IMG/VR virus record: IMGVR_UViG_2737471828_000007
Length of the DNA stretch: 24,832 nt
Source of the DNA: a virus
Lineage: Duplodnaviria > Heunggongvirae > Uroviricota > Caudoviricetes
Strand: one strand, 5' to 3'
A program made the translations under genes and the position numbers. The notes beneath the pieces are model-generated. The model did not search any database, was not told the origin of the DNA, and worked only from the letters and a program-made list of their open reading frames with translations. Shown here in pieces: positions 283-20,747 of this stretch (position 1 is its first letter; each line of letters starts with the position of its first letter).

Positions 283-862
283 CATCCGGCGCGGTGCTGG
301 TATCTGTTGCCGTCACCGCGTCAATGTAATCCAGCACAGCGTTAAGGCGGGTTGTTTCTGCCTGCGTCAGTTTACGTCCGGCCTGCAATTTCAGTTGAAT
401 CAGACTGATGGAAGCCATAGCAGCATCAATCAGCGACTGGCGCTGTGCTTCTGCCGCGTCTACTGCGCCGCTATATTGTGCCTCGGTATCGGTCACCCAT
501 TTCTCTCCATCCCATTTATCGTATGGCGTTAATGGGGCGATCGTGGTGGTTCCTTCCGGGTATTCTCCCAACTGTGAAATAGTCACAGCTTTGCCAGTAG
601 CCGTGCTGTAAACGGTTTCGCCGCGATGGTCTGCAACGTATTCCCAACCGGTCAAATCAGCCGTCCGGCAGACAGCAAAGCCGTCCTTTTTGCTGATTGG
701 CGCATCCACGCATGAATTGCCTGGAACGCCAACGCCAACGGGAAGATATTCTAACGATGCGGAAGTAAACTCCATCGTTTCTCCGTTGTAGTTGTAAACA
801 GTGATAAAGCCAGCTTCCGTGGCGAACCCGTTTTCATCCAGGGTGATTTCTTTTGTGGTCAT
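254..862 (-). CDS. G: Tail fibre assembly protein (P2 gpG-like)
   Basis: 202 aa ORF immediately downstream of the tail fibre gene; conserved C-terminal tail-fibre-assembly motif; ATG confirmed at 862..860. Confidence 0.85.
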   Translation of the reverse strand: MTTKEITLDENGFATEAGFITVYNYNGETMEFTSASLEYLPVGVGVPGNSCVDAPISKKDGFAVCRTADLTGWEYVADHRGETVYSTATGKAVTISQLGEYPEGTTTIAPLTPYDKWDGEKWVTDTEAQYSGAVDAAEAQRQSLIDAAMASISLIQLKLQAGRKLTQAETTRLNAVLDYIDAVTATDTSTAPDVIWPELPEV

Positions 863-2430
863 TATACTGCCCTTACAATGTAGTTGAATGCAATGTTGCG
901 CGGACGGGTTTCTGAACCACCCACAGCGACGGTTGATCGAGTAGGCTGGTTTACTATTTCCCCGCTGACGTCAGCCGTAACGACGTCGAACCCCGCCGTA
1001 GGATCAAAGTTTTTCAACCCCCATGAACGGTCAAAGTTATGGCTGTGGGATTTAAACGCATCGCCCTGAGTAGACAGCAAAACGCGACCATTATCCGCAC
1101 CGCGCCCGTCATCCCAGCCGCGAATGAATTCACCGCGTAAATCAGGCAATTTATTTGTCGGGTAAGCCTTTGCCAGTTCCGGGTATTCTTCAGCAGAAAA
1201 ATCCGCACCATTGCATTTCAGCCAGCCTGTTGGCGGTGTGGCTGAAGGCCACGGAACAGGCACCCCAACAGGTAATGCTGAGCCTTCTCCCAAACCAAGG
1301 TAATCAAGAACGCCCTGAGTGCTGGTTTTACCAAGAATGGCACGTCCAACACTTGTCAACGCGGTTAACGCGGCACGATCTGCCCCTGTAAAATATGGGA
1401 GTTTATCTGCTGATGTGGCAAGCTCCGCCAGCGCCGTCAGGGTGGCATCCTTCGATTGCTTACCCGCAAGCGCGTTAGTCATGGTGGTCGCAAAATTCGG
1501 GTCATTGCCCAGCGCCGCAGCCAGTTCGTTCAGCGTGTTCAGTGCATCAGGTGACGAATCTACAAGTGCGGCAATCGCGGCCATAACGAAAGCCGTGCTT
1601 GCGATCTGGGTACTATTAGTCCCCTGTGGCGCAGTTGGCGTCGTTGGCGTTCCGGTCAGTGCCGGGCTGTTTAATGGTGCTTTCTTGTTCGTTTCATCCA
1701 TTACCGCCTTAACAGCTTTTGGTGTCGCTGCCAGCGTTTCAGACGTGCTGTTCGTGGCGCTACTGAGCTGAACAATCCCTTTTTGTGTAGTGGTGCCGTT
1801 CTGGGCGGTATATTTCCCGTTAGCCAGGTCATATGCAGCCTTAACCGCTTTCGGTGTTGCGGCCAGTGTTTCTGATTCACTGTTAATTGCACTGCTTAAC
1901 TGAGTAAAACCTTTTGCGGTCAGCGAGGCGTCCGGGTGACGTCGTGACTGTTCGTGCTCTGAGATTTTATCATCCACATATTTGCGGGTTGCCAGAACCA
2001 CAGACGGGTCGATTTTCAGCGTGATAGCTTCGGTGTTCGTGACAACCAGAATCATGCGGATAGTCTGGGTGCGTCCACTGCCTTCCTGCAACTGCGGTTT
2101 GTACGTTTCCGGGCAGTTTGCCACCGCAATGAGTACACCTTCATCATCATAAAGACCAATCTCACGGATCCAGAATCCTCCCTCGTTTTCAGGGATGATT
2201 TGCTCCGCAATAATCTGGCTCTGATTGTTAGGGTCAACACTCAGAAGATTCAGCGGTGCAATGCGTTTCTGGTTAATCAGTTTTGTTTGTGCAGGGTCTG
2301 GTGTTGGTAACACACCATTTGCATCACCAACGGCCATTTGCGTCAGATTCAGCTTACTGCCGAGCATCGTCGCGTTAGCCAGTCGTGCTGCGCCCTGATT
2401 AGTCAGAATGGCGTAGTATTTCACTGTCAT
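862..2430 (-). CDS. H: Tail fibre protein (P2 gpH-like)
   Basis: 522 aa; P2 H-like N-terminus (MTVKYYAILTNQGAARLANA...), internal repeated SETLAATPKAVKA motif; position between I and G. Confidence 0.9.
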   Translation of the reverse strand: MTVKYYAILTNQGAARLANATMLGSKLNLTQMAVGDANGVLPTPDPAQTKLINQKRIAPLNLLSVDPNNQSQIIAEQIIPENEGGFWIREIGLYDDEGVLIAVANCPETYKPQLQEGSGRTQTIRMILVVTNTEAITLKIDPSVVLATRKYVDDKISEHEQSRRHPDASLTAKGFTQLSSAINSESETLAATPKAVKAAYDLANGKYTAQNGTTTQKGIVQLSSATNSTSETLAATPKAVKAVMDETNKKAPLNSPALTGTPTTPTAPQGTNSTQIASTAFVMAAIAALVDSSPDALNTLNELAAALGNDPNFATTMTNALAGKQSKDATLTALAELATSADKLPYFTGADRAALTALTSVGRAILGKTSTQGVLDYLGLGEGSALPVGVPVPWPSATPPTGWLKCNGADFSAEEYPELAKAYPTNKLPDLRGEFIRGWDDGRGADNGRVLLSTQGDAFKSHSHNFDRSWGLKNFDPTAGFDVVTADVSGEIVNQPTRSTVAVGGSETRPRNIAFNYIVRAV

Positions 2431-3035
2431 GCGTTTACTCTCAGATTATCAATTAAATGAATGGCCGGGGCAGGGAAATAATCCCCTTCGACAATAATGG
2501 ACTCCGGGGTGTAGGGATAAACCGTCAGGGCATCGCCGAGATAGCATCCCGTACCAACGAAAATCTTTCCGTTCACACTCAGGCTGATCGCCAGCCCCGT
2601 CAGATGGCGACTTACTGGTTTTGCATCCGCAATAAGGCGCTCAAGTTCCTGATACATTTCATCGGTGATGCCCTGATCAAGTACTCCGACAACAATGCGA
2701 AATGTTCCTGGCTCCTCGTTGAGTTGCCACCACTCCTTTACTTCAATCAGGTAGCCGAGAGGCTCCACGGCTCTTCGCAGTGCGCTGATGGTCCCTTTGT
2801 GTCGGTGTATCAGCCATGCATCACGAATCACCTGTCGTTTTGTCTCTTCCGGCCAGTTGCGATCCCAACGGTCAACGGAAAATGCCCAGGCGAGATAAGG
2901 CAGCAGGTGCACCGGGCAGGTGTCCGGCGACCACAGCGTGTTGAGGTCTACCGGGATGTCTGTAATGCGCGTTCCGACAGCTTCGGCACAACGCATGAAA
3001 CTGCTGGCTGATGGTGGTAACAGTGAATTACTCAT
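2427..3035 (-). CDS. I: Baseplate assembly protein I (P2 gpI-like)
   Basis: Track ORF 2427..3068; start placed at the internal ATG (MSNSLLPP...) so the gene overlaps the end of J by only 8 nt; position between J and H. Confidence 0.85.
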   Translation of the reverse strand: MSNSLLPPSASSFMRCAEAVGTRITDIPVDLNTLWSPDTCPVHLLPYLAWAFSVDRWDRNWPEETKRQVIRDAWLIHRHKGTISALRRAVEPLGYLIEVKEWWQLNEEPGTFRIVVGVLDQGITDEMYQELERLIADAKPVSRHLTGLAISLSVNGKIFVGTGCYLGDALTVYPYTPESIIVEGDYFPAPAIHLIDNLRVNA

Positions 3036-3924
3036 TGCGCCCACCTTCGCTGATGGTGAACGACTCACAGCGCGCCGCCTGTATGTCGCTGATGGCCATA
3101 TTCTGTGTGGGTTCGATTATCTCCACGCGTTGCACACCGTGCACATGCAGTGCGGCAGCAATGGCGGACAACGCCACGTCCTGACCGATAAGCCCCTGCT
3201 CAGCCAGCCACTTCCTGAACGACGATTCAGCCGCCGCCAGAATAGGTTCGGATTCCGGGCCGGGGTAAAAGTACAGTTTTGCATTCAGCCGCCATGTCAC
3301 GATTCTGGCGCTCTGTACAGTAAGGCGGTCGGCCACCGGGCGGGTATCCTCTGCATTCAGAACGGCGCGAACGGTATTAAGCAACGCCTCCGTTGCTGTG
3401 CCGTCGCCTTCAGTGGACAGGATGGAAACCGTCACATTTGCCGGAGACGGACTGATAGCCCGCGCATCACGCACCAGACCGCTGGCGCTGCGGGCAAAAT
3501 ACTCGTATGCACCTGACGGGCCAGCAACACTCAGGCCATCGTACGCCCGCTGCGCCCGCAGTCTCAGCGAGGTGTCACTTTCCATCACTGCGTCGGTGGT
3601 ATCCGTTGCCGGAGTGATGGTCAGGCGCTTTGTGTTCATATTGCCCGCGAGGTTGTCCAGGTCTGTCCCGGCGCTGTGGCTTAACATGCAGGCGCGTGCC
3701 CCCTCATTGACCCGCTGGCGTAACAGCATTTCACGAAACGCTGTTGTCTGGGCGATAACGTTCAGGGGTTCCGATTCCAGCTCCAGCGCGGCGGAGACGG
3801 CTTCACGCTGTTCGGCGGGATAAGCCGCAATCATCATGGCCTTTGTGTCAGCCAGAATTGCCTCAAAGTCAGGCTCCGCGATGATGGCGGGTTCCGGTAA
3901 CTGGGAAAGGTCAACAGCAGGCAT
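3028..3924 (-). CDS. J: Baseplate assembly protein J (P2 gpJ-like)
   Basis: 298 aa ORF with ATG at 3924..3922; P2 J-like sequence and gene order W-J-I. Confidence 0.9.
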   Translation of the reverse strand: MPAVDLSQLPEPAIIAEPDFEAILADTKAMMIAAYPAEQREAVSAALELESEPLNVIAQTTAFREMLLRQRVNEGARACMLSHSAGTDLDNLAGNMNTKRLTITPATDTTDAVMESDTSLRLRAQRAYDGLSVAGPSGAYEYFARSASGLVRDARAISPSPANVTVSILSTEGDGTATEALLNTVRAVLNAEDTRPVADRLTVQSARIVTWRLNAKLYFYPGPESEPILAAAESSFRKWLAEQGLIGQDVALSAIAAALHVHGVQRVEIIEPTQNMAISDIQAARCESFTISEGGRNE

Positions 3925-10913: not shown

Positions 10914-12665
10914 ATGATTCAGGACGCTTTTGTGCGCCAGCGTGCGCGACAACTTTACTGGCAGGGTTATCCGCCCGCTGAAATATCACGTCTGATGGGA
11001 ATAAACCCGAACACGATTTATGCGTGGAAAAAACGCGACCAGTGGGATGAAACGCCACCCGTGCAGCGTGTCACGCAGTCCATCGATGCGCGCCTCATCC
11101 AGCTTACTGAAAAACAGAATAAAACAGGTGGCGACTTCAAAGAAATAGACCTGCTGACCCGGCAGCTTAAAAAACTGCATGATGGCCAGCCGGATGCGAC
11201 GGCCACAGGAAAGAAAGGCCGGGCGAAAAAACTCAAAAATCATTTCACGCCGGAACAGATTGCCGCACTGCGGGAAAAAATCATCAGCAGGCTGGAGTGG
11301 CATCAGCGGGGCTGGTTTGACTCCCTGACCCTTTGCAGGGGAGCCGGGATACGTAACAGGATGATCCTGAAATCCCGACAGATTGGGGCGACCTGGTATT
11401 TTGCACAGGAAGCACTGCTGATGGCGCTGCGTGACGATGTGGCACAACCTTACCAGCGTAACCAGATTTTTTTGTCTGCGTCGCGTCGTCAGGCGTTCCA
11501 GTTTAAAAGCATTATTCAGAAGGCCGCGGCTGAAGTTGATGTGGAGCTGAAAGGGGGCGATAAAATCATCCTCTCCAACGGCGCAGAACTGCATTTTCTC
11601 GGTACTTCTGCTGCGACGGCACAGTCCTACACAGGCAATTTTTATTTTGATGAATTTTTCTGGGTCAGTCGCTTTGCTGAACTGCGCAAGGTGGCTGGCG
11701 CTATGGCAACCCTCAGCGGACTGCGGCGCACCTACTTCTCCACGCCATCCACCGAAACGCACGAGGCATACGCCTACTGGAACGGCGACCGCTGGAACGA
11801 GAAAAAGGCCTCGCATAAACGCCAGCGTTTTTCTGTGGACTGGAAAACGCTGCATAACGGGCTTATCTGCCCTGACCGGACGTGGCGGCAGATTGTCACG
11901 CTGGAAGATGTGGTTAATCACGGCTGGAAACACACCGATATCGACGAAATTCGTGATGAAAACACCGAAGACGAGTTCCTCAATCTCTATATGTGTGAGT
12001 TTGTCCGCGAAGGGGAATCGGCATTTAACCTGAATATCCTGATTGGCTGCGGTGTTGACGGATACGACGACTGGAAAGACTGGAAACCTTTTGCTCCCCG
12101 CCCGATGGGGAATCGTCCGGTATGGATTGGGTATGACGCAAACGGCAGCAGTGGTAACGGCGACAGCGGCGCTGTGTCTGTGGTGGTTCCTCCGGCTGTT
12201 CCTGGTGGCCGTTTTCGAACGGTGGAGACGCGACGCGTTCAGGGGCTGGAGTTTGAAGAACAGGCCAGAGTCATTGAAGAGTTCACGTGTCGCTACAACG
12301 TGGAACACATCGGCATTGATGTGACGGGCGGGAACGGGGAGGCTGTTTATCAGATAGTGAAACGGTTTTTCCCTGCTGCTATTCCGTACACCTTCACGCT
12401 GTCATCAAAACGGTCGCTGGTACTGAAAATGCTGCAAATAATGCGTGCCGGGCGGTGGGAATACGATCGCGCCGAACGCGAGCTGGTCGCGGCCTTTAAC
12501 GCCGTGCGTAAGGTGAAAACACCGGGCGGCTTTATCACTTACGAAACGGACCGCGCGAGGGGGATCAGCCACGGCGACCTTGCGTGGGCAACCATGCTTG
12601 CTGTCATTAACGAACCGATTGGCGGCGAAGGAGAAAACGAGCGTTTCACGGTTATGGAGTTCTGA
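10914..12665 (+). CDS. P: Terminase ATPase (large) subunit P (P2 gpP-like)
   Basis: 583 aa; ATG at 10914 with GGGGGAG RBS; P2 P-like sequence; followed by Q with ATGA-type overlap. Confidence 0.9.
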   Translation: MIQDAFVRQRARQLYWQGYPPAEISRLMGINPNTIYAWKKRDQWDETPPVQRVTQSIDARLIQLTEKQNKTGGDFKEIDLLTRQLKKLHDGQPDATATGKKGRAKKLKNHFTPEQIAALREKIISRLEWHQRGWFDSLTLCRGAGIRNRMILKSRQIGATWYFAQEALLMALRDDVAQPYQRNQIFLSASRRQAFQFKSIIQKAAAEVDVELKGGDKIILSNGAELHFLGTSAATAQSYTGNFYFDEFFWVSRFAELRKVAGAMATLSGLRRTYFSTPSTETHEAYAYWNGDRWNEKKASHKRQRFSVDWKTLHNGLICPDRTWRQIVTLEDVVNHGWKHTDIDEIRDENTEDEFLNLYMCEFVREGESAFNLNILIGCGVDGYDDWKDWKPFAPRPMGNRPVWIGYDANGSSGNGDSGAVSVVVPPAVPGGRFRTVETRRVQGLEFEEQARVIEEFTCRYNVEHIGIDVTGGNGEAVYQIVKRFFPAAIPYTFTLSSKRSLVLKMLQIMRAGRWEYDRAERELVAAFNAVRKVKTPGGFITYETDRARGISHGDLAWATMLAVINEPIGGEGENERFTVMEF

Positions 12666-13711
12666 TGAGCAGAAAAAATAAAAAAGTGCGCATGAGTTCA
12701 CGCATTGATCTCGCTGATGCGCTCAGGAAAGAATCATCGCTCAGTGCATTCACATTTGATGGTCCTTATCGCCTGACCGGGCATGACCTGCTGGACAATA
12801 TGTACTGTGCTGATAACGGGCGGTGGTATGAAACCCCGGTGGACTGGTACGGTCTGGCAAGAGCTGCCCGGCAAACGTCCTGGCATCAGTCTGCGCTTTA
12901 CTTTAAGCGCAATGTATTACTCGGTTGCTACATCCCGCACCCGCTGCTTTCCCGGCAGGATTTCTCGGCGCTGGCGCTGGACTGGTTTGTGTTCGGTAAC
13001 GCATTCCTTGAGCTTCGAAGCAATATGCTCGGCGAACCGCTTAAATTACGGCACGCACTGGCGAAATACATGCGACGCGGAAGCGATCTTGAATCATGGT
13101 GGTATGTGCAGGATGGCAAGGACGCGTTTCAGTTTCGCCCAGGCAAAGTGTGTCACCTGATGAATCCTGACATTAACCAGGAAATCTACGGCATGCCGGA
13201 ATATCTCGGCGCATTACTCTCGGCCAGCCTGTCTCATTCGGCGGACATGTTCAGAAAACTGTATTACGACAACGGATCCCACGCCGGGTGCATCATCTAC
13301 ATCGGTGCAGCGCAGGTAAACCGCGAAAGCATGGACTCCCTGAAAGAAACGCTACAGGGTGCGCGTGGTGGTGGTGCGTTTAAAAACGTGCTCATTCATG
13401 CGCCCAACGGGGGCAAAGAGGGGGTGCAAATTTTGCCGTTCCAGCAGATCACCGCAAAGGATGAGTTTATGAATGTTAAGGCGGCATCCCGTGATGATGT
13501 GCTGGCTGCGCACCGCGTTCCGCCGCAACTGATGGGGGCGATGCCGGGCGAAAAAAGTGCGTTTGGCGATGTGGAGAAGGCAGCGCGGGTTTACGCAATT
13601 AACGAGCTGATGCCCGTCATGGAGGCTATGAAGCACATCAATGACTGGCTTGGCGAAGAGGTGATCCGTTTTAACTCTTATGCTCTTCTTGATGAAAAAA
13701 CAGCCCCGTGA
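12665..13711 (+). CDS. Q: Portal (capsid-vertex) protein Q (P2 gpQ-like)
   Basis: 348 aa ORF immediately after P; P2 Q-like sequence. Confidence 0.9.
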   Translation: MSRKNKKVRMSSRIDLADALRKESSLSAFTFDGPYRLTGHDLLDNMYCADNGRWYETPVDWYGLARAARQTSWHQSALYFKRNVLLGCYIPHPLLSRQDFSALALDWFVFGNAFLELRSNMLGEPLKLRHALAKYMRRGSDLESWWYVQDGKDAFQFRPGKVCHLMNPDINQEIYGMPEYLGALLSASLSHSADMFRKLYYDNGSHAGCIIYIGAAQVNRESMDSLKETLQGARGGGAFKNVLIHAPNGGKEGVQILPFQQITAKDEFMNVKAASRDDVLAAHRVPPQLMGAMPGEKSAFGDVEKAARVYAINELMPVMEAMKHINDWLGEEVIRFNSYALLDEKTAP

Positions 13712-13727
13712 TGGGGCTGTCCTTTTT
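13693..13727. terminator. Bidirectional intrinsic terminator shared by Q (+) and the convergent gene at 13726..14250 (-)
   Basis: Perfect 7-bp stem CAGCCCC/GGGGCTG with 5-nt loop, A6 run upstream and T5 run downstream; the Q stop codon sits in the loop. Confidence 0.7.
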
Positions 13728-14250
13728 ACCAGAGTTGAACCATTTTCTGGGTGCCGTCAGGCTTGAGATTATCAATTTCAGAGAGAACGTAATATTGAAT
13801 GGCTTCACAAACGGTGGTGTAAGGTGAATTACCTTCTTTAAGTGGCACGATATTATTATTAACGCGAACCTGTATTTCATCGTTATACATTGCGATCGAA
13901 ACAGGAGTGTGCACGAACGCGACTTCGCCAGGTGTGTCGTCAACCACCGTTTCAATACTAAAAGTCAGTTTTCGCTCATCATTGCTGCCCCGTGCTTTGG
14001 GGGTAGCGGCAGGGATCTGGGATAAAGGCATTCTGCGAAATCCTTCGGCTGCTTCCAGTCCGCATGAAACGTAATGCTGGCGATTACCGTCGCTATCTGT
14101 CCAGGTCTGTGATGGCAGCTCCAGCGAGATTTCATAATCATCAACAATGCCCTGGGCAAGGCGTACAAGCGGGGTCAGATCTTCATTGCGGCGAAAGCTC
14201 TCCTTTACCTGCTCCCGTTTTTCTCTTAACTGCTTGTAATTAATGACCAT
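13726..14250 (-). CDS. Hypothetical protein (174 aa), standalone cargo gene next to the expected cos end
   Basis: Track ORF 13726..14289; start placed at internal ATG (MVINYKQLREK...) preceded by GGAGG; convergent with Q; I recognise no family; AT-richer than the flanking structural genes by eye. Confidence 0.65.
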   Translation of the reverse strand: MVINYKQLREKREQVKESFRRNEDLTPLVRLAQGIVDDYEISLELPSQTWTDSDGNRQHYVSCGLEAAEGFRRMPLSQIPAATPKARGSNDERKLTFSIETVVDDTPGEVAFVHTPVSIAMYNDEIQVRVNNNIVPLKEGNSPYTTVCEAIQYYVLSEIDNLKPDGTQKMVQLW

Positions 14251-14289
14251 AAGACAGCCTCCATTGATTTCTTTGCTCGTATTTTGCAC

Positions 14290-14836
14290 TTATGAAGTAT
14301 GATCGGCAAGGTGCCGTATCGCTGACGCGCTTCGCTTGTCTGCTGCTTCGCCGGGGCATAAAAAATTTATGCCCCGACTCTCCAGCTCCTGTATCAATCA
14401 GATAATTTCACGACGCCTTCCAGCTTATTGTCATCATCGACGGTCAGGCTCTTACGCAATCCCGCCGTGCTGACTGCATGTTCTCGTCGCCTCAGTGCGA
14501 TTTTGACGGCCTTATCAGTCACCCCATCAAATCAAAAGTCCTCACGTATTTTTCACGCTCAGCGTGAGAAAGACAGCCATTCTGTTGTGTCGCTGCGACA
14601 TCGTTCAGGGAATGCTGTTTACCCCCTGAAACGCGGGCTGTTCCCCCGTCACCTGCGCGCAGAAAAAGCGCGTTTTTTTGTGCACGCACGGATCCTTGAC
14701 GGATCCAGCCGCCATGCGGGCCGGAAGGGTAAAAAGTCGTTCAAAAAAATTGTGCAAATTTGTGCACTTTTGTGCAAACAAAAAGCGCCCCTGAGGCGCT
14801 TTAGTGTTTTATAGGTTGTGTATATTGGCTGGGTCC
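14290..14836. promoter_or_regulatory. About 550 bp non-coding region with several palindromes and repeats; probable promoter/operator region of the 13726..14250 gene and candidate location of cos
   Basis: No credible ORF (the only track ORF is Arg-rich and low-complexity); 10-bp palindrome GGGGCATAAA/TTTATGCCCC near 14353..14375; TCACGCT-c-AGCGTGA near 14555; TGTCGC-t-GCGACA near 14587; TTGTGCA repeated three times at 10-11 bp spacing near 14749..14778. Confidence 0.5.
14771..14802 (-). terminator. Intrinsic terminator at the end of the parM-parR-orf-orf operon
   Basis: Stem AAAGCGCC/GGCGCTTT with 5-nt loop followed on the minus strand by a T-rich run; about 35 nt downstream of the stop at 14837. 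Confidence 0.65.
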
Positions 14837-15100
14837 TTATCCTGCTGTGCTTTCAACTGATGAGGGGAACAAAATCTTTTCATCAAACCCTGCATTCATA
14901 TCATGGACAGCAACACACCAATCCATTGACGAACGATTATCAAGAGCCTCCATGATTTCATCCATGCGGCGTAGGTCATACAGGTAAATGTTTTTATCGC
15001 CAATGGTGTAAAAACCAATTTTTTTCGGTGATGGACAGCGATCAAGAACGTCCTGTAATTCGCTCAACCATGCTTGTTCTTTTTTTGTCAAAGTTGCCAT
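14837..15100 (-). CDS. Hypothetical protein (87 aa), last gene of the par operon
   Basis: Track ORF 14837..15121 (TTG first); ATG at 15100..15098 with AAGGAGAG RBS, 1 nt after the stop of the upstream gene; no family recognised. Confidence 0.6.
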   Translation of the reverse strand: MATLTKKEQAWLSELQDVLDRCPSPKKIGFYTIGDKNIYLYDLRRMDEIMEALDNRSSMDWCVAVHDMNAGFDEKILFPSSVESTAG

Positions 15101-15101
15101 A

Positions 15102-15533
15102 TCACTCTCCTTTGATGCCAATGTCTACAGCTTGGCAAGCCTCTTTGGTCACCCAGTCAATAGCGTCTTTCCATACTCCAGTTTCGACTGGCGGATTCTC
15201 ACGCTTTACCTGTTCATAGAAACGCACCGCTCTAACCAGTCCATCTGGTACTGCTGGCGCTGGCGGCTCTCGATACATAGGGATAACACGTCGCGGGTCC
15301 GCGTATTTATCTGGCGGACACTGAAATATCTCACCGAAACCATACTGCTTGACATCACGCAGTTCCTCATCATCAGTCCATGCAACAGGTTTCGCTTCCA
15401 GCGATGTGAGTGCGATTTTCAGTGCGATTAACATATTGTGATCGTTTTCATCAAGGCCAAACGGGATGTCTTCACGACACGATTCAAGGTCTGCAATTTT
15501 GCGTTGTAACCATTTTTTGGGGATAGTTGCCAT
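15102..15533 (-). CDS. Hypothetical acidic protein (143 aa), third gene of the par operon
   Basis: ATG at 15533 with GGAGAGGAG RBS, 19 nt after the parR stop; no family recognised. Confidence 0.65.
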   Translation of the reverse strand: MATIPKKWLQRKIADLESCREDIPFGLDENDHNMLIALKIALTSLEAKPVAWTDDEELRDVKQYGFGEIFQCPPDKYADPRRVIPMYREPPAPAVPDGLVRAVRFYEQVKRENPPVETGVWKDAIDWVTKEACQAVDIGIKGE

Positions 15534-15552: not shown

Positions 15553-15867
15553 TCACTCTGGGAAAAATGACTGAATGTTCTTTCTTATCTCGCTAGTGCT
15601 GTGATTGCTTCCGGTGGCAGGTGCGCTGGCATATTTACTCTGAATATTATTCTTGGCTGGCGCAGCTCCTTCTTCCGGCCATTCGGCCAACCAATAGGCA
15701 AATGCAGGATCGCGTTTTATGAGTGCCAGCCCGGCCAGAAAGGCCGCGCGTTGCGCGCGGCTGCGTTCAGAGGCTGGCAGGCTGTCGAGGTAATTACACG
15801 CCTCCCGTTCACTATTGACGGCGACTGGCTTCAGATAGAAACTTATCCGTCTGGTTGGTGTCGTCAT
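15553..15867 (-). CDS. parR: ParR/StbB-like centromere-binding protein (type II partition adaptor)
   Basis: Track ORF 15553..16002; start placed at internal ATG (MTTPTRRISFYLKPVAV...) with AAGGAG RBS, 4 nt after the parM stop; ISFYLKP...LDSLPASERSRAQRAAFLAGLAL resembles plasmid R1 ParR (ribbon-helix-helix N-terminus). Confidence 0.75.
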   Translation of the reverse strand: MTTPTRRISFYLKPVAVNSEREACNYLDSLPASERSRAQRAAFLAGLALIKRDPAFAYWLAEWPEEGAAPAKNNIQSKYASAPATGSNHSTSEIRKNIQSFFPE

Positions 15868-15871
15868 TGGT

Positions 15872-16831
15872 TTACTCCTTGTCCATTGCGTACAGCCCAT
15901 TAACCAGAGCAAACTGTGGCACCCCGTCCGCGATGAAAGTCGCATTAACTCCGCAGGCTTCGCGGATAGCGGGTGCCACAATCTCCGCCCCGCCACCGAC
16001 AACCATCACCCGCCCGTAACCCGAAAAACCCGCCAGCGCGCGGATCACGCGTTGTTTCAGTGTTTCTTCCTTTTCACGAATAACCGCCATCAGGCTGGCG
16101 TAATGCGCGTCATTGTGGATGTGCTGGCGCAGCCAGGCTTCATCATGGCGATGTTCGATAATGGTATTGGCGATGTGGTGACTGGTGCGCATACCGTTAG
16201 TGGCCATCACCGACAGTACGGCATCGGCCATCAGAGAAACGCCTACGTGTGGATCGCAAAACATCTGGCTGATACCTGCCAGTTGCCCCTGAACCTTTGC
16301 CACATCCAGCGTGGTTCCGCCCAAATCCACAATCAGCAGGGATTCAAACGGACTCATGTCAGCCAGTGCCTTAAAGCCAGCCGGAATGGATTCAGGCATA
16401 ACCCGTACGTTACGGATAGTGAATGCTTCGCCGTTCTGGTACTCCACCGGGCGCATAACGTTCGCTTTTTTGCGGTTGATGTTGGTCATGTCCGGCTGTG
16501 CGTTTGTGTCGAAATACTCGCTCAGTGGCAGGGTGACAACCACATCCACCTCCTGTGGCGTGATGCCTGATTTGACCAGCGCGTGATGAATGGCAATGAC
16601 ATTCACATCGCTGTACTGGTATTGCGTGTCGGTCGTCTGGACAAAGCGATCGCTGACCGGATCAAAACCATAGCGCACGCCATCAAGCATATAGTTCGCG
16701 GGCTGCGTGCCACAGAACGGCGCAGACCATTCCGACTTGAAGCTGTTCGGGCTGATGGCGTTGCGGCGTTCGCCGTTCTCAGTCCATGCCAGCTTGATGT
16801 TGGTGGAGCCGTCGTCAATACAAATTTTCAT
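15872..16831 (-). CDS. parM: ParM/StbA-like actin-fold segregation ATPase (type II partition)
   Basis: 319 aa; hallmark ParM motifs IDDGSTNIK, ISPNSF, QYSDVNV..HHAL, VMPESIPAG, DLGGTTLD, GGGAE, LVNG; same length as R1 ParM. Confidence 0.85.
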   Translation of the reverse strand: MKICIDDGSTNIKLAWTENGERRNAISPNSFKSEWSAPFCGTQPANYMLDGVRYGFDPVSDRFVQTTDTQYQYSDVNVIAIHHALVKSGITPQEVDVVVTLPLSEYFDTNAQPDMTNINRKKANVMRPVEYQNGEAFTIRNVRVMPESIPAGFKALADMSPFESLLIVDLGGTTLDVAKVQGQLAGISQMFCDPHVGVSLMADAVLSVMATNGMRTSHHIANTIIEHRHDEAWLRQHIHNDAHYASLMAVIREKEETLKQRVIRALAGFSGYGRVMVVGGGAEIVAPAIREACGVNATFIADGVPQFALVNGLYAMDKE

Positions 16832-16860
16832 GTCGTTTTTCCTTATGTTGATTAATTAAT

Positions 16861-16975
16861 CGTTTACGGGATTCTGAAATCCCGTTTTTGCCTGTTTTAT
16901 GCGCGCTTCATATATCGCGGCGCGTTTTTTGCTCATTTACGGGATTTGTGAATCCCGTTTTTGTCTGTTTTTTGT
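16861..16975. repeat. parC-like repeat region upstream of parM: two direct repeats of about 38 bp, each with a perfect 8-bp inverted repeat, flanking a GC-rich palindrome
   Basis: TTTACGGGATTCTGAAATCCCGTTTTTGCCTGTTTT (about 16863..16900) and TTTACGGGATTTGTGAATCCCGTTTTTGTCTGTTTT (about 16936..16973), about 73 bp apart; each contains ACGGGATT-N4-AATCCCGT; between them CGCGC...GCGCG followed by T6. Overlaps the 3' end of the A ORF. Confidence 0.6.
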
Positions 16976-19733
16976 TTCCACTGGTCAGGCCACCCCGCAG
17001 CAGGTCTGCTTTGCGGCGGGCGCGTTCAGTGGTTTCACTGATTCTCTGTGCGTGCTCTGCGTCGCGGATGGCGCGCAGCATGTCAGAAAGCACGGTAACG
17101 GGTGTTTTCATGGTGTTCTGGTCTTGCTGAAGTGTGGATGCCAGGCGTGCGGCGGCTTCAGGGTCTGATACCCCAAGCTGTTCCAGATAGCTGGCGACCG
17201 GGTTATGGCGGATCTCCGTGCTGCTTACGCCGTGATTACGGCTCAGGCGTTGCCAGAGCTGCGTGATTCGGCTGTCCGGGCGGGTATCCGGTTTGCGTAC
17301 AATTTCAAATCCCTGCGGTGCAATGATGCTGCCGTCAACGTACAGACTGCCGCCCCGTAACAGGTGCTGCATCTGCTGTTCACCGATATGCAGGCCGAGA
17401 GATTCAGCAGACTCCCGCCATTCTTTAGCGAGTAATTCGTAGTTATCAGGCAAAGGCCGCTGCTGTTTGCGGCTCTGTGTCCAGCTCTGCATTTCATCAC
17501 TGCTGTTTTTTGCCTGTTTGTCACGAAGCGAACGCATCAGCGCCCGGCGTTCGTGCCGTTTCAGTGAGCGCATCCATTCGTTCACTTCAACGCCGTCAGG
17601 GAGCTGCGGCCACGGTGCTGGCCGTTCTTTCGGCTGTTCTGTCCCGTTGTTGTCCGTTTCCTGTACACGGGGACAGTTATTGCCACGAGTCCAAGGGGCG
17701 GCAGGGCCGCCCTGAAGGTCAAAACCATTTTCGCGGGCGCTGTCTTCCGCTTCCGGTTTACGTCTTACCAGCTTCCAGTTATCCGGATGCGTGCACACAC
17801 GGGAGGATTCCCCGATGAATGGCGACCAGATCCCGTAAATCTGTACACTCTGTTCGCCGTAATCGTTCAGCTCATCTGCGAGGTCGTAGGCTGTGCGAAT
17901 CAGGTAGTCCTTGCGCGGAACAAGTACGCCACCCTGTTTTTCAATGTAGGTGGCAAAACATCCGGCATCAGCGGCAGCGAGTACCGCATCCATTGCGTCA
18001 TCCTTCAGCCGTTGCGGGCCTTCCGGGTTGCGTGCCATCTGGCTGGCAAGGCGGCGCAGTTCACGCCACACCTGACGGGAGGGGATGCCAAAGAACTGGA
18101 ACTGGCGGACCCGATGAAGGCGCGCCCAGCCGATGGCGCGCTCCACGCTCTCGGCCATTGATTTTCCGGTTTCGTGGTCAACGCGTGGTTTGCCCGTTTT
18201 CGGGTCGATTCCATCCACGGCGCGGCTGTCCAGGTTTTTTCCGATGTAGGTGGCGATGTAGCTGGTTGGCGTGCCTTTGGAGCCGTCGACGTACTCCACC
18301 TTAAAGCGCGGAGTAATATCATTGCCCAGCTCGTGGCGGTCTTCCTGAATGGCAATATCGCGGGTGATGGCCACGATGCTGTCGATTTCTTCCGGATGAG
18401 CAAAGACCATCATATGCCAGTGCACGGTGCCGTCATGGTGAGGCTCCACCGTGCGGATGCCATACCAGCGCAGGCCGTCGCGGTTCAGTTTTTTGCGGAC
18501 CGCCGCAAAAAACGTGTTAACCAGGTAATCGCTGGAGTCGCGCATGGTGGCCCCGTTCCATTTGGGATTCGGATGACCGTTCTCTGTTGTGGCGTGGTAT
18601 TTTGACGGGCAGGTGACAGTCAGAAACACCGCTTTGTCGCCACGGGCTTCGGCCAGAAGTTCCAGTCCCTTCATGGTGGCCATCATTTCTGCCTTACGGT
18701 GAACCGGGTTACTTACTCCCGCGTAATACACTGTCTCGAGATCAATCGTGAAACCGTCTTCGTTTTCCAGTTCGAAGCTCTTCAGGAAGTCGCGGGTTTT
18801 CTCGCGCTGTGCGCGAAACTCGCTTAACGCGTCCTGGCTCAGATAGGGTGATGTTTTTCTGGAAACCAGACAGGCGGCGCGGAGTTGTTCTTCTCTCCAC
18901 TCACAACGTAACAGCCACAGTTTGCGTTTCCACCAGTCCGCACAGGTCAGGCGAAGGATTGCGCCCGGCAGCAGTTCCGTATCCGGTTCGCTCTTGTTCA
19001 GGGCTTCGTAATGTGGCGGCATGATGTGCAGGCGTAATGCGATACGAGCCAGCATCCGGTAAGCCTTCAACATTACATCCATGGTCAGCTCGCCATCTCT
19101 GGCACCAAAGCCATCGCAGAGTGTTTCGAAGGTGCTGCTGAACATCGCCGCGGTCATGGTGGCCAGCGTCTGTATCTGGTGCTTGTTGAGCTGCGGCAGG
19201 TAAAGCAAATCGTCCAGGCGTTCGCGCCCGGCAAGGGAGCGATAACCCGGTGTCAGCCAGCGTCCGTCAGTGCGATCCAGACGTTCGAATATTTTGCGCA
19301 GGGTTCCGCGTGCATAGCGTTCCGCCTGCCAGCTCTTTTTGCCTTTCTGGCGATCGGCTTCCTGTTTTTTGCGCAGGAAAGAGAGGTGGTGGCTCAGTGG
19401 TTCACGCAGATAAACAGGTAGTGCCTTTAGTGTGGCAAAGGCACGGGCTACCGGGTCTTGTTCTGTTGCCCGGCGCTTACTGATGATGCTCTGTGCCAGC
19501 TTTTCACGCTGTCCGGCTTCCTCAAGGGATGCCATGAGTTTTTTACCCATGGCGGATTGTGCGAAAAAGGCTTCTTCCTTCGCTCCCTGTTCTTCCTGTG
19601 CCCTTTTGTCCGCCTCAAGGTAGTAACGGATGGCGCGTTGCAGGTCGGTTTCAGTTTCCTGCCTGCGCTCCGTAAATCTGGCCGGATCAATGGCTGGCCG
19701 TGGTTCATTCCAGCTCCATGCAAACTCACTCAT
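16908..19733 (-). CDS. A: Replication initiation endonuclease A (rolling-circle, P2 gpA-like)
   Basis: Track ORF 16908..19760 (GTG first); ATG at 19733 abuts the stop of the upstream gene; conserved HHDGTVHWHMMVF metal-binding region and YIATYIGKN active-site tyrosine region typical of P2 A. Confidence 0.85.
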   Translation of the reverse strand: MSEFAWSWNEPRPAIDPARFTERRQETETDLQRAIRYYLEADKRAQEEQGAKEEAFFAQSAMGKKLMASLEEAGQREKLAQSIISKRRATEQDPVARAFATLKALPVYLREPLSHHLSFLRKKQEADRQKGKKSWQAERYARGTLRKIFERLDRTDGRWLTPGYRSLAGRERLDDLLYLPQLNKHQIQTLATMTAAMFSSTFETLCDGFGARDGELTMDVMLKAYRMLARIALRLHIMPPHYEALNKSEPDTELLPGAILRLTCADWWKRKLWLLRCEWREEQLRAACLVSRKTSPYLSQDALSEFRAQREKTRDFLKSFELENEDGFTIDLETVYYAGVSNPVHRKAEMMATMKGLELLAEARGDKAVFLTVTCPSKYHATTENGHPNPKWNGATMRDSSDYLVNTFFAAVRKKLNRDGLRWYGIRTVEPHHDGTVHWHMMVFAHPEEIDSIVAITRDIAIQEDRHELGNDITPRFKVEYVDGSKGTPTSYIATYIGKNLDSRAVDGIDPKTGKPRVDHETGKSMAESVERAIGWARLHRVRQFQFFGIPSRQVWRELRRLASQMARNPEGPQRLKDDAMDAVLAAADAGCFATYIEKQGGVLVPRKDYLIRTAYDLADELNDYGEQSVQIYGIWSPFIGESSRVCTHPDNWKLVRRKPEAEDSARENGFDLQGGPAAPWTRGNNCPRVQETDNNGTEQPKERPAPWPQLPDGVEVNEWMRSLKRHERRALMRSLRDKQAKNSSDEMQSWTQSRKQQRPLPDNYELLAKEWRESAESLGLHIGEQQMQHLLRGGSLYVDGSIIAPQGFEIVRKPDTRPDSRITQLWQRLSRNHGVSSTEIRHNPVASYLEQLGVSDPEAAARLASTLQQDQNTMKTPVTVLSDMLRAIRDAEHAQRISETTERARRKADLLRGGLTSGNKKQTKTGFTNPVNEQKTRRDI

Positions 19734-20119
19734 GGCTGGTATCCCGTCACGCGCTGCCACTCCTGCGAGAAGATGGCGGAAAGGCGGTTAAATTCAGCGG
19801 TGTATTCACTCAGCGAGGCACACCCGCCAGCAGTGCGATGCGCCAGCATTGCCGCAAATACGGAGGCCGGGGAGTCATAATACGCCAGCAGTGATTCGCC
19901 GTGTGGTGTCAGGCAGTGCAACGCCAGCCCGTGTGGTGTGAAATCCACGCGGTAGCAGTCGTCTACTGTGAAATAAAGGGTGTCCGCATTCTCCGGTTTT
20001 GTGGTGCGTGCTCTGTTGTCACGACCACGGATGTAGAGATCAAATAATCCCTGAAGAATGGGAGCCAGACGGGTGTCCTGTGTGCGCACCCATCTTGTGA
20101 AGTCATGAGCGTCAATCAT
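19730..20119 (-). CDS. Hypothetical early protein (129 aa) immediately upstream of A
   Basis: ATG at 20119; stop abuts the A start; position equivalent to P2 orf82/orf83; no family recognised. Confidence 0.6.
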   Translation of the reverse strand: MIDAHDFTRWVRTQDTRLAPILQGLFDLYIRGRDNRARTTKPENADTLYFTVDDCYRVDFTPHGLALHCLTPHGESLLAYYDSPASVFAAMLAHRTAGGCASLSEYTAEFNRLSAIFSQEWQRVTGYQP

Positions 20120-20439: not shown

Positions 20440-20660
20440 TTTGTGAGTTTTTGGATACTCACCAACCAGAGTTGAGAATCTCGGGGTGGCGAGACGTACG
20501 GGGTTCTCAACACCGGCAAACGAAGAAACCGGCCCGACCGAAGTCGGCCCCGTACGCCCCACCATAATTCGTGTGCGAAAAAGACGTGGCAATACAGTAC
20601 GCACAAAAAAACCGCTGGCGCGGTTGTGCGCTTCGTTTGTCAGCAGGTTGAGAATCCCGG
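20440..20660 (-). ncRNA. Candidate structured non-coding element inside the early operon (nested inverted repeats, repeated GTTGAGAATC motif, stable tetraloop hairpin)
   Basis: No credible ORF; GTTGAGAATC at about 20471 and 20648 (direct) and inverted at about 20503; 9-bp inverted repeat CGTACGGGG/CCCCGTACG (about 20495 and 20548) enclosing hairpin GGCCCGAC-CGAA-GTCGGCCC, which reads as a UUCG-loop hairpin on the minus (transcribed) strand. Strand and nature (RNA versus DNA site) not established. Confidence 0.35.
20603..20625 (-). terminator. Intrinsic terminator within the early region (minus strand)
   Basis: Stem AACCGC/GCGGTT with 4-nt loop, followed on the minus strand by T7-8. Confidence 0.6.
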
Positions 20661-20747
20661 CACCCGTTTTATGAGGTGCAGCAGAAATGTAACCTGACTG
20701 ATTGCGGCATGGCAAGCGGTTTTTTTGTGTGTGCATGCTCTGATTTC

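Follow-up and report, generated by a model that had tools for sequence, protein, structure and literature searches.

What are two small genes doing directly behind a partition locus in a temperate phage? The question is raised by a 24,832-nucleotide stretch of viral DNA (IMG/VR record IMGVR_UViG_2737471828_000007; "the window" in what follows), which reads as a P88-like E. coli prophage (Xuanwuvirus, Peduoviridae; P2 family) and is 97–98% identical in the region of interest to the P88-like phages PhiR44_2, P88 and Shae_phiSM by DNA comparison. Here the partition genes parM and parR are followed by two open reading frames (ORFs), ORF143 and ORF87, for which the original prediction had offered two kinds of role: an anti-restriction or anti-defense function for the small acidic protein, or a new partner of the partition machinery.

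The two genes add new copies to phage families that are known but uncharacterized, at a variable site of a familiar kind, and they do not make up a new plasmid-type partition element. We consider it probable that they are separate accessory modules of the kind found in the early regions of lambdoid and P22-like phages (the exo-xis or "ea" region and the nin region), recombined into the cargo site of a P88-like phage. Four things carry this reading, each established by sequence comparison: the family to which each protein belongs, the mosaic joints that bound the genes, the variability of the site, and the absence of a specific linkage to parMR.

Linkage to the partition genes

ORF143 and ORF87 are real genes, annotated in RefSeq as WP_000201251.1 and WP_000224220.1, respectively. 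The stop codon of parR (15,555–15,553) is followed by a 19-nucleotide spacer with a Shine-Dalgarno sequence, AGGAGAGGAG, and then by ORF143; a single nucleotide separates ORF143 from ORF87, whose own Shine-Dalgarno sequence (AAAGGAGAG) lies within the final ORF143 codons. Both spacers and both ribosome-binding sites agree with the coordinates first reported, and the terminator that had been claimed near 14,790 was located as a hairpin at 14,802–14,782, which would close the cargo transcription unit and is part of the variable cargo rather than of the backbone. A scan of the minus strand from the parM start to 14,802 found neither a sigma-70-like promoter nor a strong terminator, so that co-transcription fits the sequence, and we infer that both genes are transcribed together with parM-parR.

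The description of ORF143 as acidic needs tempering, since it is only mildly so (isoelectric point 4.94, net charge −6); for ORF87 the isoelectric point is 4.67 and the net charge −5. DNA mimics of the Ocr/ArdA type have a very high net negative charge spread over their surface. Anti-restriction by DNA mimicry was considered for the two proteins and rejected on these modest net charges.

The tight, operon-like spacing 3′ of parR would suit accessory components of ParMRC, such as an adaptor or regulator of ParR or ParM, and in one sublineage the first ~50 ORF143 codons do move with parR. Yet among the 80 ParM loci just 5 have ORF87 after parR and 3 have a full-length ORF143 (94% identity or more), two of the latter (L030 and L074) without ORF87. 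Conversely, 68 of the 79 ORF87 loci are without ParM, ParR or a P2-type portal, and the arrangement joined to parR occurs in only 42 of 5,426 complete E. coli genomes. The N-terminal module that ORF143 shares with EaA proteins (described below) is widespread in phages without parMR, most P88-like phages combine a near-identical ParM with wholly different downstream genes, and in Pectobacterium prophages the ORF87 homolog stands next to gpA instead.

Conservation of the linkage with parMR in other genomes had been set beforehand as the test of the proposed "new partner of the partition machinery." Checked by gene neighborhood, the linkage is not conserved, and the partition role is therefore contradicted on the terms set for it in advance. 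The conserved linkage to be expected of an extra ParMRC component was found for neither gene, and because they are not conserved with parMR we do not count ORF143 and ORF87 as part of the ParMRC locus; that they act as its accessory components is very improbable.

Family membership of the two proteins

ORF87 matches phrog_1714 over its full length (1e-50, residues 1–87 of 87) and is 61% identical to Orf-87 of Salmonella phage ST64T, which is also matched at 6e-47 by the profile of our 32-sequence alignment (A1). A word search returned 143 homologs, all from Enterobacterales and all unnamed, and an exhaustive profile search returned 199 clusters at 50% identity, nearly all of them stand-alone proteins of 80–94 residues; in the few longer proteins Pfam recognizes no domain, and these seem to have arisen by read-through fusion to neighboring genes. 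Thirteen columns are invariant in A1 (C22, P23, S24, P25, K27, G29, F30, T32, Y41, D42, R44, F78 and G87). Membership in the family is defined by the full-length profile match together with the motifs, and ORF87 has both: CPSPxKIGFYTIGD, YD and a C-terminal FPxxVESTAG, of which distant members retain GF(Y)T(I/V)GD, YD and a C-terminal FPxxVxSTAG. A 95-residue protein that replaces ORF87 in L041 (and in L030, same cluster) was tried as a distant relative and set aside (E 8).

ORF87 is under strong purifying selection, with a median ratio of nonsynonymous to synonymous substitution rates (dN/dS) of 0.07 over 30 variants, each compared with the window copy; selection on ORF143 appears weaker (dN/dS 0.24–0.72, from the just three comparisons that had enough synonymous change). 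The fold of ORF87 is predicted with confidence (predicted local distance difference test, pLDDT, 89) as a compact alpha/beta protein, and this predicted fold matches no solved structure: no PDB sequence scored better than E 0.9 in profile searches, and Foldseek against BFVD gave one unnamed match (8e-5). We found no characterized member of the Orf-87 family, and a literature text search with the RefSeq and PHROG identifiers found no paper.

ORF143 is a protein of a different kind. It matches phrog_660 over residues 1–142 (2e-43) and several other PHROGs in part, and its 821 homologs are strongly mosaic, some of them carrying Ead_Ea22 or DUF551 domains in place of one ORF143 module. Alignment of the homologs (A2) and an AlphaFold2 model (mean pLDDT 72.5) show an N-terminal helical hairpin (residues 1–50) closed by the hinge IALxSLEAxPVAW; next come a small middle module and the linker PPAPAVP, and a second helical hairpin, ending in IGIKGE, forms the C terminus. 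This combination of three modules was found, at 94% identity or more, at a few loci only.

By hmmsearch the A2 profile matches Eaa1 of ST64T at 4e-18 and gives no match to lambda Ea22 (E 1.8), and ORF143 itself matches nothing in Pfam at E ≤ 1, so neither PF13935 (Ead_Ea22) nor PF04448 (DUF551). ORF143 is best described as a mosaic protein of the phrog_660/EaA type and not as a member of the Ea22 family. It shares with the former most of its length, the N-terminal helical module and the LEAxPVAW hinge, and PF13935 is carried by only some of the homologs that share other modules with it. Neither ORF143 nor ORF87 has a match in Pfam, NCBIfam or PADLOC (PADLOC-DB cut-off E ≤ 0.1).

Mosaic joints and changing partners

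The short boundary between the two genes (15,101–15,123) is a recombination joint. It encodes the last residues of the upstream gene (…I-(G/R)-I-K-G-E-stop) and at the same time contains the ORF87 Shine-Dalgarno sequence, and L030 and L074 drop homology to the window at 15,089–15,096. Across the 79 ORF87 loci, the gene 5′ of ORF87 invariably ends 1 nucleotide before the ORF87 ATG, and at least 18 unrelated proteins take this place, among them a 72-residue protein of the RefSeq DUF4014 kind (25 loci), an XF1762-type protein (15 loci), ORF143 (3 loci), and various Ea22-like coiled-coil proteins; nearly all, the DUF4014-type excepted, end in …GI(R/G)IKGE.

Two short, translationally coupled genes with a 1-nucleotide spacer might also call to mind a type II toxin-antitoxin pair, and pairs that look like Fic/Phd and HigBA (judged by sequence only) do occupy the same site in relatives. 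However, both proteins are acidic, searches of Pfam, NCBIfam and PADLOC linked neither of them to toxins or antitoxins, and the pairing is not fixed, given the many upstream partners of ORF87 and the presence of ORF143 in L030 and L074 without it. We rejected this explanation, which we regard as extremely improbable.

Downstream of ORF87 there is more regularity. In 77 of 88 loci the next gene lies no more than 60 nucleotides away and opens with an EaA-type N-terminal module, followed by varied C-terminal parts (total protein length 55–411 residues). Counting all N-module ORFs in 105 ORF87 loci (n = 124), 77 are immediately downstream and 15 within 800 nucleotides upstream, the latter being the arrangement of the window. 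The adjacency persists where ORF87 identity has fallen to 61–63% (ST64T, an rV5-like phage, and Edwardsiella and Erwinia prophages) and is absent in Chi-like phages and in the Pectobacterium P2-like prophages. These counts overstate the number of independent events, since most of the loci are close relatives, and the adjacency may reflect either a functional partnership or only conserved boundaries that guide recombination. If it were a partnership, Orf-87 and the N-module proteins might form a conserved two-part early system, in which a constant, structurally new 10-kDa subunit works with an adaptor whose shared N-terminal hairpin bears C-terminal domains that are rapidly exchanged, as a polymorphic counter-defense or host-takeover device shared by temperate and virulent phages, phage-plasmids and IncI2 plasmids; we think this unlikely.

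Distribution of the Orf-87 family in phages and plasmids

The surroundings in which ORF87 homologs are found are those of early operons, with which they are co-oriented. In ST64T the gene lies in the ea region, between eae and eaa1 (P22-type, erf/abc to xis-int); in an Edwardsiella prophage it lies between RecT/Ead_Ea22 and xis-int, in a region that also holds N and CIII; and in E. coli prophages its place is a nin-type region, with the replication genes on one side and Q on the other. Pectobacterium P2/186-like prophages (L177 and L178, 6,001–6,249) carry an 82-residue homolog (60% identity) 3 nucleotides after the gpA stop codon, in the gpA-to-portal hotspot and with no parMR; the family has therefore entered a P2-type hotspot in a second, distantly related prophage group. 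Homologs are also present in virulent Chi-like and rV5-like phages. Among complete E. coli genomes, up to 1,195 of 5,426 have a close DNA match to a 781-nucleotide query, mostly over ORF87.

Three short contigs (L179, L180 and L187) binned as Segatella copri and Collinsella metagenome-assembled genomes carry an Orf-87 that is 93–97% identical to the E. coli copy; most likely these are mis-binned Enterobacterales phage contigs, and the bins do not name true hosts.

The gene also occurs on 142 plasmids, 85 typed as non-mobilizable and 57 as conjugative; the examples examined were an IncY P1-like phage-plasmid from the first class and IncI2 plasmids from the second. The IncI2 plasmids pA31-12 (L172, 3,680–7,133) and pEc42_3 (L009, 3,136–6,616), which have a MOBP relaxase, carry an Orf-87 96–97% identical to the window copy. 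In pEc42_3 the gene follows a 149-codon gene by 1 nucleotide, just past a traL-like gene, in an operon that diverges from mobC and the relaxase gene, with HicAB adjoining. These copies show that early-region genes have been exchanged between phages and the leader side of plasmids. In IncI2 the gene and the relaxase gene lie on opposite sides of oriT; the side with Orf-87 should be the first to reach the recipient, and transcription of the gene runs away from oriT. Plasmid leading regions are enriched in anti-defense genes, for which an orientation rule tied to single-stranded DNA (ssDNA) promoters has been described (PMC11541004), and we take the leading-side position as a weak circumstantial pointer to anti-defense.

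It is possible, on this and other evidence, that ORF87, alone or with an EaA-type protein, binds and so blocks an immune protein of the host or of a resident prophage early after DNA entry, as Ral, Gam, Abc2 and Oad2 do. Its early operons adjoin recombination and anti-RecBCD genes; the family spans temperate and virulent phages, phage-plasmids and the leader side of IncI2; and the protein is small, mildly acidic, well folded by prediction and strongly conserved. A precedent comes from the same kind of region: Oad2 of HK446, a relative of EaE, inhibits the OLD nuclease of P2 (bioRxiv 10.64898/2026.07.10.737580), in a preprint that was all our literature search on the P22 ea genes returned. Against counter-defense stand a charge far from that of a DNA mimic, the transcription of the IncI2 gene away from oriT, unlike anti-defense genes driven by ssDNA promoters, and the profile comparisons. 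By hmmsearch neither the A1 nor the A2 profile matched any of the pL-operon proteins of lambda (Ral, Gam, Kil, CIII, Ea10, Ea8.5, Ea22, Orf61, Orf63 and Orf60a); of the proteins of the ST64T ea region, A1 picked out Orf-87 alone and A2 picked out Eaa1 alone, with Abc1, Abc2 and Eae unmatched (E > 0.1 for every protein without a match).

Alternatively, the two proteins could be modulators of the exo-xis type, which act on the lysis-lysogeny decision, host replication or stress responses and do not target immunity, although we hold this for a rather doubtful possibility. They share the niche of lambda ea22, orf61, orf63 and orf60a and of the P22 ea genes, ORF143 has modules in common with proteins that bear Ead_Ea22 or DUF551 domains, and lambda Ea22 is a pro-lysogenic, modular oligomer with a variable C-terminal domain (PMC10834534). 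On the other hand, ORF143 is missed by the Ead_Ea22 model and its profile misses lambda Ea22, and ORF87 is carried by strictly virulent phages and conjugative plasmids, which make no lysis-lysogeny decision.

The cargo site and the question of defense

Since the terminase and portal genes lie at 10,914–13,711, ORF143 and ORF87 fall between gpA and the portal gene Q. In P2-like phages this cos-proximal interval is a hotspot of genetic diversity, where old and tin are located (Rousset et al., 2022, PMC9122126). Our survey of the cargo covered the 59 IMG/VR loci of P88-like phages in which both anchors are visible, and among these we found 35 arrangements after parR, assembled from 46 protein clusters. 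The cargo of relatives includes PADLOC matches to AbiLi/AbiLii, IetA with a subtilase, an RmrA-like helix-turn-helix peptidase, PDC-M04A and PDC-M11A, and cassettes that match PADLOC or resemble toxin-antitoxin pairs stand at the very site of ORF143 and ORF87 in L059 and L078 (cargo 131–1,850), L087 (cargo 379–3,662), L066, L071 and L077. That both ORFs are additional cargo of a known defense or accessory hotspot, as had been suggested, is thus borne out by position, by the variability of the site and by the defense cassettes of relatives.

Many other cargo clusters of the 59 loci consist of small, co-oriented genes like those of lambdoid early regions: 18 loci have an Ea22-like protein and 12 a ClpX-type zinc-finger protein, and several clusters are of the EaA type. 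The P2 hotspot therefore admits lambdoid early genes too, and a location within it is no evidence of a defense function. A rule by which co-oriented cargo would be lambdoid and opposite-strand cargo defensive was considered and dropped: the IetAS, RmrA-like and PDC-M11A cassettes are also co-oriented.

Were the two genes a prophage defense or superinfection-exclusion cassette, they would resemble other cargo of a hotspot known for defense genes, where relatives have matches to AbiL, IetA, RmrA, PDC-M04A and PDC-M11A. Such a role is less likely because PADLOC recognizes neither protein, the scan detected no separate promoter for the two genes, and virulent phages have the family too. In addition, the genes are co-oriented with the early operon, and ORF87 is common in lytic early operons as well; it has many and widely varying neighbors, and for that reason is not part of a fixed multi-gene system. 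We judge a defense cassette to be quite unlikely.

A model for the origin and use of the two genes

The reading we prefer, that of early-region modules recombined into a P88-like cargo site, can be put as a sequence of steps. Recombination at conserved gene-boundary sequences would have brought both modules into the cos-proximal cargo site, where they would extend the gpA-parM-parR unit in the 3′ direction, closed by a terminator of their own. The genes would then be expressed alongside the early replication genes upon infection or induction, with ORF87 probably coupled translationally to the gene before it. Their products may be small binding proteins with targets in the host, serving host takeover, the lysis-lysogeny decision or counter-defense and not DNA segregation; an early-expressed protein that acts on the host or against its defenses is plausible. 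ORF87 would be the constant, structured effector, and ORF143 one of many EaA-type proteins with a common N-terminal helical module and exchangeable C-terminal parts.

Several points weigh against this reading. Co-transcription and early timing are read from gene order alone, with no promoter located; the same site carries defense cassettes that are expressed from the lysogen, so that a role in the lysogen is possible; and the surveyed loci are mostly close E. coli relatives, whose counts are not independent events.

The Orf-87 family is in any case a good experimental target, being under strong purifying selection and having a close DNA match in up to about one-fifth of complete E. coli genomes. 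Its confidently predicted fold without a solved relative, its presence on diverse mobile elements, including IncI2 plasmids of the mcr-1 type, and its almost constant EaA-type neighbor add to its interest. If Orf-87 should prove to be an establishment or counter-defense factor, this would be relevant to the spread of both phages and plasmids.

Backbone of the prophage and features outside the cargo

The order of features on the backbone is gpA, parM, parR, cargo, a conserved cos-proximal stretch and portal gene Q (Table 1), with gpA as the final backbone gene of the early operon, 5′ of parM. In pairwise BLAST comparisons with relatives, backbone homology runs through gpA and parM into the first ~50 nucleotides of parR, stops at ~15,815, and restarts at 14,776, downstream of the cargo. 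The conserved non-coding stretch beyond that point is presumably the cos-proximal region; a search for the 19-mer of P2 cos, allowing up to three mismatches, gave no match, and cos was therefore not placed. A second variable slot holds ORF187, which is variably present among P88-like loci and absent, for example, from E. coli MS8345.

Table 1. Features of the window, with positions counted from its first nucleotide.
Feature	Position	Strand	Description
Terminase and portal genes	10,914–13,711	plus	
ORF187	13,726–14,289	minus	phrog_5091 (5e-67), isoelectric point 4.9; second variable slot, adjoins portal gene Q
Conserved non-coding backbone, cargo to portal side	14,318–14,776		94–97% identity in P88-like loci regardless of cargo
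Intrinsic-terminator-like hairpin	14,802–14,782	minus	9-bp stem with 5 G-C pairs, then TTTTTGTTTG
ORF87	14,837–15,100	minus	ATG at 15,100
Shared boundary, CATT(G/C)GCATCAAAGGAGAGTGAT	15,101–15,123	minus	~23 nucleotides; identical joint before ORF87 behind unrelated genes
ORF143	15,102–15,533	minus	ATG at 15,533, TGA 15,104–15,102
parR	15,553–15,867	minus	104 residues; Plasmid_stab_B 4e-25
parM	15,872–16,831	minus	Actin-like partition ATPase, 319 residues; StbA_N 1e-81 and ParM C-terminal domain 4e-68
42-nucleotide direct repeat, two copies	16,860–16,901 and 16,933–16,974		83% identity, 73-nucleotide spacing (repeat search)
gpA	16,908–19,760	minus	Replication endonuclease, 950 residues; Pfam Phage_GPA 6e-130; ~97% DNA identity to P88-like phages

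ParM is at least 98% identical across all 80 IMG/VR loci retrieved (P88-like), and beside this near-invariant protein ParR occurs in alleles that are 48–53%, ~65%, ~76% or 97–100% identical to the window copy (loci L011–L090). The alleles keep the N-terminal ~65 residues and a C-terminal tail, NIQxFFPE or, more loosely, NI(Q/R)xxFP(E/D), and the ~25-residue linker between them is hypervariable; the recombination breakpoint between backbone and cargo falls inside parR, at ~15,815. The 42-nucleotide repeat straddles the end of gpA, just 5′ of parM, and each copy contains a 20-bp palindrome, ACGGGATTnnnnAATCCCGT. The repeats are a candidate parC centromere or operator with two sites only, unlike parC of R1, which has ten iterons.

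Two Rfam matches above the gathering score lie on the minus strand, one to the C4 antisense RNA (20,482–20,569, 79 bits) and one to the isrK Hfq-binding RNA (20,605–20,679, 62 bits); these are immunity and anti-Q control elements of the P1/P7 type, here within a P2-family prophage.

Comparison with known systems

The partition locus itself resembles the R1-type ParMRC in having a true ParM, a ParR-like Plasmid_stab_B protein and, upstream, palindromic repeats as a candidate parC. It differs in that the classical locus has two genes, whereas here two extra ORFs follow that are not conserved with it.

The nearest named relative of ORF87 is Orf-87 of ST64T (phrog_1714; RefSeq WP_000224220/WP_000224227, "hypothetical protein"), which is alike in size, motifs and the possession of an EaA-type neighbor. 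In the window, however, the gene is the last before the terminator, in a P2-family hotspot behind parMR, and its EaA-type neighbor is upstream, whereas in ST64T that neighbor is downstream.

ORF143 has the N-terminal helical module and the IALASLEAEPVAW hinge of EaA (Eaa1) from P22 and ST64T, and its middle and C-terminal modules are common to it and the mosaic proteins that bear Ead_Ea22 or DUF551. Unlike those mosaic ead/Ea22-like proteins, it has neither PF13935 nor PF04448, and its profile misses lambda Ea22.

HK446 Oad2 and lambda Ea22 are likewise small accessory proteins of the modular lambdoid early-left region, and they have been shown to act on immunity or on phage development. Both are functional precedents only: A1 and A2 give E > 1 against ST64T EaE and lambda Ea22, and the sequence of Oad2 itself stood outside the comparison.

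Finally, the cargo site is that of the old and tin hotspot of P2, with the same cos-proximal position between gpA and portal Q, extreme variability, and candidate defense cassettes in relatives, but in P88-like phages parMR is held between gpA and the variable part, and the cargo in the window consists of lambdoid early-region genes without a defense signature. P88-like phages thus show that the P2 hotspot admits lambdoid early-region genes besides defense cassettes.

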